UHGV virus genome: UHGV-1546769
Strand: one strand, 5' to 3'
Source of the DNA: a virus
DNA: 10,201 bases
Under the pieces are notes generated by a model, which saw nothing but the letters and a program-made list of their open reading frames with translations, searched no databases and was not told the origin of the DNA. A program made the position numbers and the translations under genes. The first letter of the stretch is position 1. Every line of letters begins with the position of its first letter. This document shows, piece by piece, positions 6,117 to 7,369 of the stretch.

Positions 6117-6479
6117 ATGGCTAGCGAACGCAGTACTGATGTGCAGGCATTTATCGGGGAACTGGACGGCGGCGTATTTGAAAGCAAAATCGGCGCAGTT
6201 CTCAGTGAAGTCGCTTCCGGTGTGATGAACACGAAAACCAAAGGTAAGGTCTCACTCAACCTGGAAATCGAACCATTTGATGAGAACCGTGTGAAAATCA
6301 AACACAAACTCTCATATGTTCGCCCGACTAACCGCGGGAAAATTTCCGAAGAAGACACCACCGAAACGCCGATGTATGTCAATCGCGGTGGTCGCCTGAC
6401 TATTCTGCAGGAAGACCAGGGACAATTACTGACTCTTGCCGGTGAACCTGACGGAAAACTCCGCGCAGCAGGTCGTTAA
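6117..6479 (+). CDS. Hypothetical early-left operon protein (120 aa, YfdP-like by size and position)
   Basis: I chose the ATG at 6117 rather than the upstream track start at 5931 because GAGGAG (6104-6109) lies 7 nt upstream and the upstream extension crosses the leader hairpin. Product MASERSTDVQAFIGELDGGVFESKIGAVLSEVASGV...; function unknown. Confidence 0.6.
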   Translation: MASERSTDVQAFIGELDGGVFESKIGAVLSEVASGVMNTKTKGKVSLNLEIEPFDENRVKIKHKLSYVRPTNRGKISEEDTTETPMYVNRGGRLTILQEDQGQLLTLAGEPDGKLRAAGR

Positions 6480-6544
6480 TATCGTTTTTAATAAACTGAT
6501 TATTTATCTCATCACTGAATATCTTTATATAGTGAGGACTTATT

Positions 6545-7369
6545 ATGTCTCAGAACTTAGACGCAACCGCAATTAATCAAATACATGCCCTTATTTCTGC
6601 TCAGGGTGTTAATGAAATTATCAGTAAGATTGGTGCCGATGCTGTGGCATTGCCTGAGAATTTCCGCATTCATGATCTGGAAAAATTTAATTTAAATCGC
6701 TTCCGTTTCCGTGGTGCGCTTTCCACTGCCAGCATCGATGACTTTACCCGTTATTCTAAAGATCTTGCAGATGAAGGCACCCGCTGCTTTATCGATGCTG
6801 ATAATATGCGTGCCGTCAGTGTGCTTAACCTGGGTACTATTGATGAACCAGGTCACGCAGATAACACCGCCACTCTCAAACTGAAAAAGGCAGCACCGTT
6901 CTCTGCTCTGTTGTCTGTTAATGGCGAGCGTAACTCCCAGAAGTCACTGGCAGAATGGATTGAAGACTGGGCCGACTACCTTGTGGGTTTTGATGCTAAT
7001 GGTGACGCCATTCAGGCAACCAAAGCGGCGGCGGCTATCCGTAAAATCACAATTGAAGCGAACCAGACCGCTGATTTTGAAGATAATGACTTCAGCGGCA
7101 AACGCTCCCTGATGGAGTCTGTCGAAGCGAAGACCAAAGACATTATGCCAGTGGCATTTGAATTTAAATGCGTTCCGTTTGAAGGCCTGAAAGAACGTCC
7201 ATTTAAATTACGACTCAGCATTATCACTGGTGATCGCCCTGTACTGGTTCTGCGCATTATTCAGCTGGAAGCAGTGCAGGAAGAAATGGCTAACGAATTT
7301 CGTGATCTGCTTGTTGAGAAATTCAAAGACAGCAAAGTAGAAACCTTTATTGGTACTTTCACCGCCTGA
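6545..7369 (+). CDS. yfdQ: Uncharacterised phage protein (274 aa, YfdQ-like / DUF2303-like)
   Basis: ATG at 6545 with GAGGA 6 nt upstream. Its length and its position just upstream of an HD-domain protein match the yfdQ-yfdR pair of E. coli prophage CPS-53 as I remember it. The symbol is tentative and needs a BLAST check. Confidence 0.7.

Follow-up and report, generated by a model that had tools for sequence, protein, structure and literature searches.

The 10,201-nucleotide (nt) stretch of virus genome UHGV-1546769 analysed here (the window) corresponds to a lambdoid prophage's immunity and early region, and its positions 6117-7369 hold two intact genes, yfdP and yfdQ, that by sequence comparison are orthologues of the yfdP and yfdQ genes of prophage CPS-53 in Escherichia coli K-12. 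YfdP followed by YfdQ is a phage-specific, strictly linked two-gene cassette. The favoured interpretation, held at low confidence with a probability of roughly 0.35-0.4, is that the two proteins form an early, stoichiometric complex that would act on the replication or recombination machinery. What is new here are the counts for the YfdP-YfdQ linkage, the neighbourhood of SSB, exonuclease, Erf, RecT and YfdR genes in which the pair is found, its near-absence from plasmids, and the want of structural relatives of YfdQ other than the recently released Protein Data Bank entry 9o7m.

The identity of both genes is established by profile matches and by comparison with E. coli K-12 MG1655. YfdQ matches Pfam family PF10065 (DUF2303) with an E-value (E) of 5.2e-92 and a score of 308 bits against a cut-off of 26.6, over profile positions 2-269 of 269, and matches phrog_210 with an E of 5.7e-119. 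YfdP matches phrog_204 (E 2.8e-49), and the precomputed PF27127 'YfdP' annotation is carried by 120 of the 120 homologues among the matches listed; neither protein has an NCBIfam match. Compared with the CPS-53 proteins of MG1655, 117 of 120 YfdP residues (97.5%) and 272 of 274 YfdQ residues (99.3%) are identical. An earlier note on this DNA had taken the pair to be conserved unknowns of YfdP-like and YfdQ/DUF2303-like type, had matched their lengths of 120 and 274 amino acids (aa) to those of the CPS-53 genes, and had placed a YfdR-like HD protein next, and it was right on each of these points (Table 1). The 120-aa yfdP frame is the ATG-initiated portion of a longer open reading frame (ORF) that opens with TTG, and its start at 6117 is backed by a GAGGAG Shine-Dalgarno sequence at 6104-6109 as well as by the aligned N-termini of 33 homologues.

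The two families have very similar distributions, with YfdP in 181 and YfdQ in 184 phage records and nearly identical counts per taxon. The 155 YfdQ loci that were fetched represent 27 YfdQ clusters at 90% identity, and in 151 of these loci (26 of the 27 clusters) the gene immediately upstream of yfdQ, on the same strand, is yfdP, the remaining four being three overlaps that result from longest-ORF start calling and one truncated yfdQ. The pairing spans enteric, Vibrio, Xanthomonas, Pseudomonas and Acinetobacter phages, and by profile comparison YfdP homologues (probability 99.2-99.8%) stand directly 5' of YfdQ in the Vibrio phages VvAW1 and 64E30.1, in CP2 of Xanthomonas and in LPPA56 of Pseudomonas. 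The intergenic gap is 65 nt in the window and 2-5 nt in several clades, and such short gaps suggest that translation of yfdP and yfdQ may be coupled in those clades. YfdQ was found in 24 of 72,556 plasmid records, of which one is conjugative.

The neighbourhood of the pair was counted per cluster within 6 kb, and since few seeds were used the counts are lower bounds. An SSB gene, a yfdR gene immediately downstream, and a cI-type repressor gene upstream are each present in 8 of the 27 clusters, followed by a DEDD exonuclease (5 clusters), a PAPS-reductase-like gene (4), a YqaJ exonuclease, Erf, NinB and a DpdA-like gene (3 each), and RecT (1). For instance, in Xanthomonas phage CP2 the YfdP-YfdQ pair heads a leftward early operon that continues with erf, exo, an endonuclease gene and ssb. 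The YfdQ family comprises 1443 clusters at 50% identity in a representative library, and full-length members among the best 150 matches are nearly all 264-288 aa long, a uniformity that leaves no domain fusion as a functional clue. The pair is among the most prevalent phage gene pairs without an assigned function: 55% of complete E. coli genomes carry it. Its strict pairing and recurrent SSB/exonuclease/YfdR neighbourhood narrow the hypotheses to be tested.

In the favoured interpretation, YfdP and YfdQ would work as one complex that is made first after derepression, early in lytic growth. YfdQ would serve as a large homo-oligomeric scaffold, as suggested by the 36 YfdQ chains in Protein Data Bank (PDB) entry 9o7m, and YfdP would act as a small adaptor, its conserved, disordered tail docking either on YfdQ or on some host protein, consistent with a predicted model of YfdP in which an ordered helix and meander are joined to a conserved tail of predicted disorder. 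The complex would target the DNA replication or recombination machinery, for instance by handling intermediates of single-stranded DNA and SSB, a role to which the SSB, YfdR, exonuclease, Erf/RecT and NinB neighbours point. In enteric phages, the complex together with YfdR might shut down DnaA-dependent initiation of host replication.

The model of YfdP (predicted local distance difference test score, pLDDT, 70.8) has a long N-terminal helix and a three-stranded beta-meander, and residues 89-106 (...TETPMYVNRGGKLTILQEDQGQLF...) form a tail that is highly conserved in sequence and predicted to be disordered; a fold search with YfdP found no relatives. Peptides that bind the beta-clamp follow the consensus Qxx(L/M)F or QL(S/D)LF and lie in disordered regions. 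At YfdP residues 98-105 (about 6408-6431 in the window), many family members carry a Qxx(L/M)F-like motif in predicted disorder, with variants QGQLF (ST64B, ArgO145), QGQMF (VvAW1), and QNQMF and QTDMF (loci L023 and L026). The tail departs from this pattern as QGQLL in the window and NKDLF in CP2, and no clear motif is present in others. The YfdP tail thus resembles a beta-clamp-binding peptide in part of the family and may be taken as a lead only.

YfdQ is an acidic single-domain protein with an isoelectric point (pI) of 5.0. A fold search against a structure library reaching to 8 April 2026 returned no relatives, annealing proteins included, and no recognisable DNA-binding or enzymatic fold. 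The sole YfdQ relative among PDB sequences is 9o7m ('YfdQ Protein'), with an example chain labelled C, which aligns with residues 16-273 of the window's YfdQ at an E of 4e-44, both proteins being 274 aa long; the CP2-like Xanthomonas phage MET23-P3 has a sequence 98.8% identical to it. Literature searches for 9O7M, YfdQ, YfdP and DUF2303 retrieved no structure paper and no function beyond the studies cited here.

Published genetics provide hints that link yfdQ to inhibited initiation of chromosomal replication. [quoted passage not shown] Mutants deleted for yfdQ were reported to be weakly sensitive to methyl methanesulfonate and H2O2 (PMC4776307), and overproduction of YfdQ in the K-12 lysogen BW25113(SW1) gave rise to plaques (bioRxiv 10.1101/413146).

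Several points weigh against a YfdP-YfdQ complex directed at replication or recombination. A physical interaction between the two proteins would be an extrapolation from synteny alone, and published work assigns no biochemical activity to either. The sole mapped phenotype does not require yfdP, and pull-downs gave no strong binding of YfdQ to YfdR or DnaA (PMC4776307). Both hda-185 suppression and the SW1 plaques are overexpression phenotypes in a cryptic-prophage background. SSB, exonuclease and annealing genes neighbour the pair in no more than about a third of clusters, and genes of this kind abound in early operons in any case. The acidity of YfdQ and its want of a DNA-binding or enzymatic fold also count on this side, as does the detection of the DUF2303 protein gp10 of Burkholderia phage JC1 in purified virions by mass spectrometry (PMC9144972), a finding not expected if YfdQ acted in replication inside the cell alone.

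A bolder form of the same idea, doubtful as it stands, is a widespread two-component machine in which a YfdQ super-assembly, loaded or targeted by the YfdP tail, would directly engage a core replication or recombination factor of the host, such as the beta-clamp, SSB or the DnaA-DnaB handover, or in which YfdQ would found a new class of annealing or filament protein. Either, if true, would amount to a new way of taking over the replisome or of recombining DNA, and about half of E. coli genomes would have it.

Some known early functions can be set aside. The cassette is not an N-type antiterminator: N-type proteins are small and basic with an arginine-rich N-terminal RNA-binding motif, and YfdP has a pI of 5.9 and an N-terminus, MASERSTDVQAF, that is not arginine-rich. 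Nor is it a known single-strand annealing protein. No component of a lambdoid Rec module (Redbeta/RecT, Erf or Sak4; Exo; Gam or Abc2) was matched by Pfam, PHROG or NCBIfam in any ORF of 6117-10130. The promoter-proximal early-left position is free of N-like, Red/Erf/RecT and Gam-like genes, and the earlier note, which had it taken by two other genes, was right in this. PADLOC profiles of known anti-phage defence proteins match only genes further downstream (SspD/DndC/BrxP-like and DpdH) and none of YfdP, YfdQ and YfdR. The pair is probably not a RecBCD inhibitor, since phage LLS, a carrier of yfdP, yfdQ and yfdR, grows better with RecBCD, which counts against a Gam-like role, and is classed as being without an anti-RecBCD function.

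Among the alternatives, a counter-defence role fares best and is nevertheless unlikely. Here YfdP and YfdQ would disarm a nuclease or an immunity system of the host, or aid the operon's own DNA-modification genes, of which the window carries DpdH-like and SspD/DndC-like examples. Such a role would fit a pair that is early and promoter-proximal, where other lambdoid phages have anti-restriction genes, and a YfdQ that is acidic, oligomeric and without housekeeping relatives. The order YfdP-YfdQ-YfdR...DpdA-like recurs in two further divergent YfdQ clusters (L073:8453-9211 and L056:8783-9523), making three in all, one of them in a high-GC prophage. However, DpdA-like and PAPS-reductase-like genes accompany only 3 and 4 of the 27 clusters, and TUM9754 has other genes beyond yfdR. 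In addition, anti-defence genes with a narrow target seldom form a family this broad and this uniform in length, with such strict pairing in hosts so far apart, and conjugative plasmids, a common home of general anti-defence genes, are essentially without the pair. The earlier note had expected genes such as anti-restriction ones at the early-left head; probable DNA-modification genes (SspD/DndC-like, DpdH-like and DpdA/TGT-like) lie further down the operon.

It is quite improbable that YfdQ is a new single-strand annealing or filament protein that polymerises on DNA, as in the annealing-intermediate structures of Redbeta and RecT. The 36 YfdQ chains of 9o7m would suit such a protein, the more so as the example chain is C and chains A and B may be another entity; exonuclease and SSB genes adjoin the pair, and LLS and ST64B carry it without a recognised Rec module. 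Against this stand the acidity of YfdQ and the fact that ArgO145, CP2 and JC1 have RecT or Erf plus an exonuclease in addition to YfdPQ. A hidden recombinase role for yfdP, yfdQ and yfdR was likewise judged unlikely by the authors of a 2025 paper, because ArgO145 has yfdP and yfdQ beside a complete Rec module (PMC12315714).

The detection of gp10 in JC1 virions raises a further alternative, namely that YfdQ is packaged and injected to protect or process the incoming genome, with temperate phages also making it first from the early-left promoter (PL). In line with this proposal, the YfdQ of known structure is that of a CP2-like Xanthomonas podophage. However, the gene is always situated among early or DNA-metabolism genes, in JC1 near recT and yqaJ (PMC9144972), and never among structural genes, CPS-53 retains yfdQ despite the loss of its morphogenetic genes, and carry-over of a protein that is abundant could account for a single detection by proteomics. 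Furthermore, PDB sequence searches with a YfdP profile and with the YfdP homologue, ORF36 and capsid protein of CP2 returned nothing tied to 9o7m, so that this entry is probably not a virion reconstruction. An injected virion role is very unlikely on this evidence. Least probable of all is a nucleotide- or nucleic-acid-processing enzyme that would act alongside the 5'-deoxynucleotidase YfdR, for instance to salvage or remodel the deoxynucleoside triphosphate pool, for which the nearly invariant polar residues scattered through YfdQ (E46, R52, R56, H104 in a PGHxD motif, Q132, E140-D141, R166 and R223) and the clusters with YfdR immediately downstream can be cited, but the order of the motifs is unlike that of DEDD exonucleases and YfdR is not nearby in most clusters.

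The location of yfdP and yfdQ is not in itself anomalous, as their arrangement is widespread and has already been described. A 1.55-kb stretch, 5900-7450, is present in 3009 of 5426 complete E. coli genomes (55%), mostly at 95-99% identity and annotated as yfdP/yfdQ, and the phage records with YfdQ include SfV, SfIV, mEp460, ST64B, phiNP, LLS and many Stx phages. Moreover, yfdP-yfdQ-yfdR was listed as a set of common early-left genes of unassigned function in 2025 (PMC12315714). A yfdP-yfdQ head of the early-left operon is thus one standard lambdoid type that is already on record, and the oddity of position implied by the earlier note disappears against the arrangement shared by these phages and by more than half of E. 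coli genomes.

Comparison with relatives points to an exchange unit composed of leader, yfdP, yfdQ and yfdR, at 5783-8032. Phage mEp460, which has a different immunity, shares 5783-8032 as a single block at 97% identity, with boundaries just after PL and the left operators (OL) and at the end of yfdR. In ST64B the homologous block is 5974-8030, at about 66% nucleotide identity; TUM9754 matches 3751-8032 and then diverges, with different genes beyond yfdR; and K-12 CPS-53 matches 6098-8032 at 97% DNA identity. The earlier note had read AT-richer sequence around 6480-7400 as a mosaic insertion. The dip itself is weakly real, with GC contents of 50% in yfdP, 23% in the 65-nt spacer, 45.6% in yfdQ and 47% in yfdR against 49.4% for the whole window, but cro and cI are at 43-45%, and cro, cI, yfdR and the genes downstream together span 43-48%. 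It consists of the spacer and a slightly AT-richer yfdQ and was rejected as a mosaic boundary, since the boundaries given by mEp460 and ST64B make it internal to one co-inherited block.

The RNA leader that precedes the pair is more interesting than the pair itself and deserves separate follow-up. From PL to yfdP it is 335 nt long, folds with a z of -5.4 relative to shuffled sequences, and consists of three modules: a tRNA-like element, an intrinsic terminator and a long hairpin (Table 1). The earlier note had called yfdP and yfdQ the first two early-left genes, which holds for protein-coding genes of the PL operon and overlooks this leader with its small RNA (sRNA) and terminator. Transcription from PL would first yield a leader RNA of about 193 nt that ends at the terminator, and only then the hairpin, the ribosome-binding site and yfdP. 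The operon therefore begins with a terminated, stable leader RNA instead of an N gene. The terminator has a 13-bp stem and a 19-nt loop, the size of which explains why it was missed by a consensus terminator scan. A terminator before yfdP in an operon with no N-like gene implies read-through or antitermination by some other route.

The first element transcribed from PL is tRNA-like. It comprises a 9-bp closing stem, two hairpins that resemble a D arm (GCGCAGGCUGAUGCGC) and a T arm (CCGGAGAUCAGCACCGG), and a middle part that varies and is 20-70 nt long. Its ends, of about 30 nt each (GUUGUGGUGAAUGCGCAGGCUGAUGCGC and GCCGGAGAUCAGCACCGGYCACCACAAC), are 90-100% conserved in unrelated phages, and the interior varies to give a total of 90-136 nt. 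In T1-like phages and further phages of Klebsiella and E. coli, copies adjoin tRNA genes; others lie just after the tRNA genes of P1-like RCS47 and on P1-like plasmids, and the copy in HK620 stands in the late leader between qut and the tQ terminator; examples are L016:2001-2090 (HK620), L014:2501-2636 (RCS47), L013:2501-2636 (IME207) and loci L017-L021. In independent folds all copies form the closing stem and the D-arm-like and T-arm-like hairpins, that of HK620 as a 90-nt cloverleaf-like four-way junction, and the consensus structure contains one compensatory closing-stem pair (G-C to A-U). ARAGORN detected no tRNA or tmRNA in the window's leader element, and Rfam gave nothing credible over the whole window at E <= 1 or over 5740-6130 at E <= 10. 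The element is therefore tRNA-like and not a tRNA, with only acceptor-like, D-like and T-like parts conserved. It was also considered as a high-copy repeat of the miniature inverted-repeat transposable element or enterobacterial repetitive intergenic consensus (ERIC) kind, which was rejected because it occurs at 1-3 copies per E. coli genome, in prophages and P1-like plasmids. In other phages a boxA-resembling TGCTCTTT is found 5' of the element, with the hairpin GCGCAGGCUGAUGCGC inside; there is no boxA in the window's leader.

In lambda, a long hairpin before the ribosome-binding site of the first gene is an RNase III site. The hairpin upstream of yfdP may likewise be an RNase III or regulatory site. 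Its inner part, CCGGRCGACGGGCUCAUWACCCAAUCCAYCCGG, is nearly invariant, and the whole is about 85% conserved at the nucleotide level in ST64B-type phages, where YfdQ is only about 56% identical in aa. Across ST64B, LLS, Eeyore and Kp4866-6 (copies at L015:2501-2607 and in L029, L030 and L031), 6 of the 45 predicted pairs are changed on both sides.

The terminated leader corresponds to a published RNA. The sRNA-17 of E. coli K1 RS218 was described as an ArcA-controlled, trans-acting sRNA from an 'intergenic region' (PMC7719688), and was placed here through the full-length PCR primers, the 5'/3' rapid amplification of cDNA ends (RACE) primers and the Northern probe given in that paper. Their positions in the window are 5785-5816 and 5947-5978, and the strand they detect is the + strand. 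From this mapping, an mEp460-type prophage appears to make sRNA-17 as its terminated PL leader and not as a free-standing intergenic sRNA; the passages of PMC7719688 that were consulted mention neither the location between PL and yfdP nor a tRNA-like fold. A rise of about 95-fold in yfdP reads was reported for the sRNA-17 replacement strain (PMC7719688). Taking this as proof of read-through was not adopted, as the construct, to judge from the primer design, keeps the terminator hairpin and its cat cassette apparently has the opposite orientation.

Upstream of the leader, the direction of the early-left operon is set by the cI repressor gene, and PL overlaps the second OL operator. Copies of the same operator type lie in the right operator region (OR) at 4943-4960 and 4992-5008. 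Beyond yfdR, whose matches to the Pfam families YfbR-like and HD_3 are weak and under the curated cut-offs, the genes of 8025-10130 have probable DNA-modification functions, to judge from their profile matches, and would represent variable cargo of the PL operon.

Table 1. Features of the window, in order of position
Feature	Position	Strand	Basis or remarks
KilA-N protein	503-1300	-	
RusA	1320-1709	-	
Small LexA-like regulator, 108 aa	1706-2032	-	
Phage N6-adenine methyltransferase (Dam-type)	1764-2669	-	
O-like replication protein	2764-3756	-	
YmfL	4101-4685	-	
Cro	4713-4910	-	
cI-type repressor (helix-turn-helix, HTH, + S24 peptidase)	5006-5659	+	Pfam Peptidase_S24 E 4e-25, HTH_3 E 1e-15
cI intrinsic terminator, AAAACCGGGG-TAT-CCCCGGTTTT then T run	5680-5702	+	Perfect 10-bp inverted repeat
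OL, two 18-bp operators ATGTAGGATAnCCAACAT	5722-5739, 5757-5774	+	Repeat family common to OL and OR
PL promoter, TTGACA-18-TACATT	5746-5751, 5770-5775	+	Promoter scan score 10/12
Leader RNA equivalent to sRNA-17, 193 nt	5786-5978	+	Published primers, RACE primers and Northern probe; 97% identical to mEp460
tRNA-like (cloverleaf-like) element, 136 nt	5786-5921	+	Conserved ends, folds
Intrinsic terminator, GCGGUACCAG...CUGGUACCGC + UCUUUUU	5933-5979	+	Inverted repeat, 13-bp stem in minimum free energy fold, sRNA-17 3' end
Long conserved RNA hairpin, 25-nt arms	5975-6070	+	Directly upstream of yfdP ribosome-binding site
yfdP, 120 aa, PF27127 / phrog_204	6117-6479	+	Profile matches, K-12 identity
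AT-rich spacer, 65 nt, 23% GC	6480-6544	+	Carries yfdQ ribosome-binding site
yfdQ, 274 aa, DUF2303 / phrog_210, ATG start	6545-7369	+	Profile matches, K-12 identity
yfdR, HD-domain 5'-deoxynucleotidase-like	7498-8034	+	phrog_318 E 2e-111; start as in K-12; last gene of block 5783-8032
PAPS-reductase/SspD/DndC-like PP-loop protein	8025-8903	+	Pfam PAPS_reduct E 3e-9; PADLOC SspD E 3e-15, weaker DndC, BrxP
Ea22 N-terminus + DpdH-like protein	8900-9373	+	Ead_Ea22 E 1e-10; PADLOC DpdH E 2e-37
DpdA/TGT-like transglycosylase	9375-10130	+	phrog_887 E 3e-103

Two observations concern other parts of the window. The methyltransferase ORF encodes 301 aa compared with the 217 aa expected from strain TUM9754, the reading frame changing after ...EACGEAF and 84 out-of-frame codons crossing the intact gene for the LexA-like regulator; this 3'-end difference is a frameshift or a sequencing error. 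Five Chi octamers are present, at 263, 1400, 2283, 4391 and 4634; four of them read CCACCAGC on the + strand and the fifth reads GCTGGTGG. The E. coli genome averages roughly one Chi per 4.6 kb, so that the density in the window is about twice that value in a small sample. Lambdoid phages without a Rec module have been reported to be Chi-rich, and the count in the window would fit this, in a sample too small for a judgement.

Among the known systems close to the window is CPS-53 (KpLE1), where orthologous yfdP, yfdQ and yfdR have the same order and spacing. CPS-53 differs in that its immunity region, its PL and all of its leader are gone, the similarity beginning 19 nt before yfdP, and in carrying yfdS (DUF551) and yfdT after yfdR, where the window has PAPS-reductase-like, DpdH-like and DpdA-like genes. 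The same succession of cI, PL, (leader), yfdP, yfdQ and yfdR is present in SfV, SfIV, mEp460, ST64B (sb37-sb36-sb35), phiNP and LLS (gp39-gp38-gp37), whereas immunity specificities and the cargo beyond yfdR are not the same as in the window; in ST64B and LLS the hairpin and the three genes are held in common at about 66% nucleotide identity, but the leader is without the tRNA-like element. The protein in 9o7m belongs to the same family and has the same length as YfdQ of the window, yet the homology is distant and its source is a virulent-type podophage of the CP2-like Xanthomonas/Xylella group; the entry was released after 8 April 2026. A structured leader ahead of the first gene at the head of the PL operon recalls lambda N/nutL and the put RNA of HK022; leader searches found no sequence similarity to the latter, and YfdP differs from lambda N in its pI, in its N-terminus and in being present also in non-lambdoid podophages. 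Finally, the extent of sRNA-17, as given by its published primers and probe, is that of the window's PL leader up to the terminator, comprising the tRNA-like element and the terminator, and a published 'virulence sRNA' thus appears to be a terminated PL leader whose core is shared by many unrelated enterobacterial phages.

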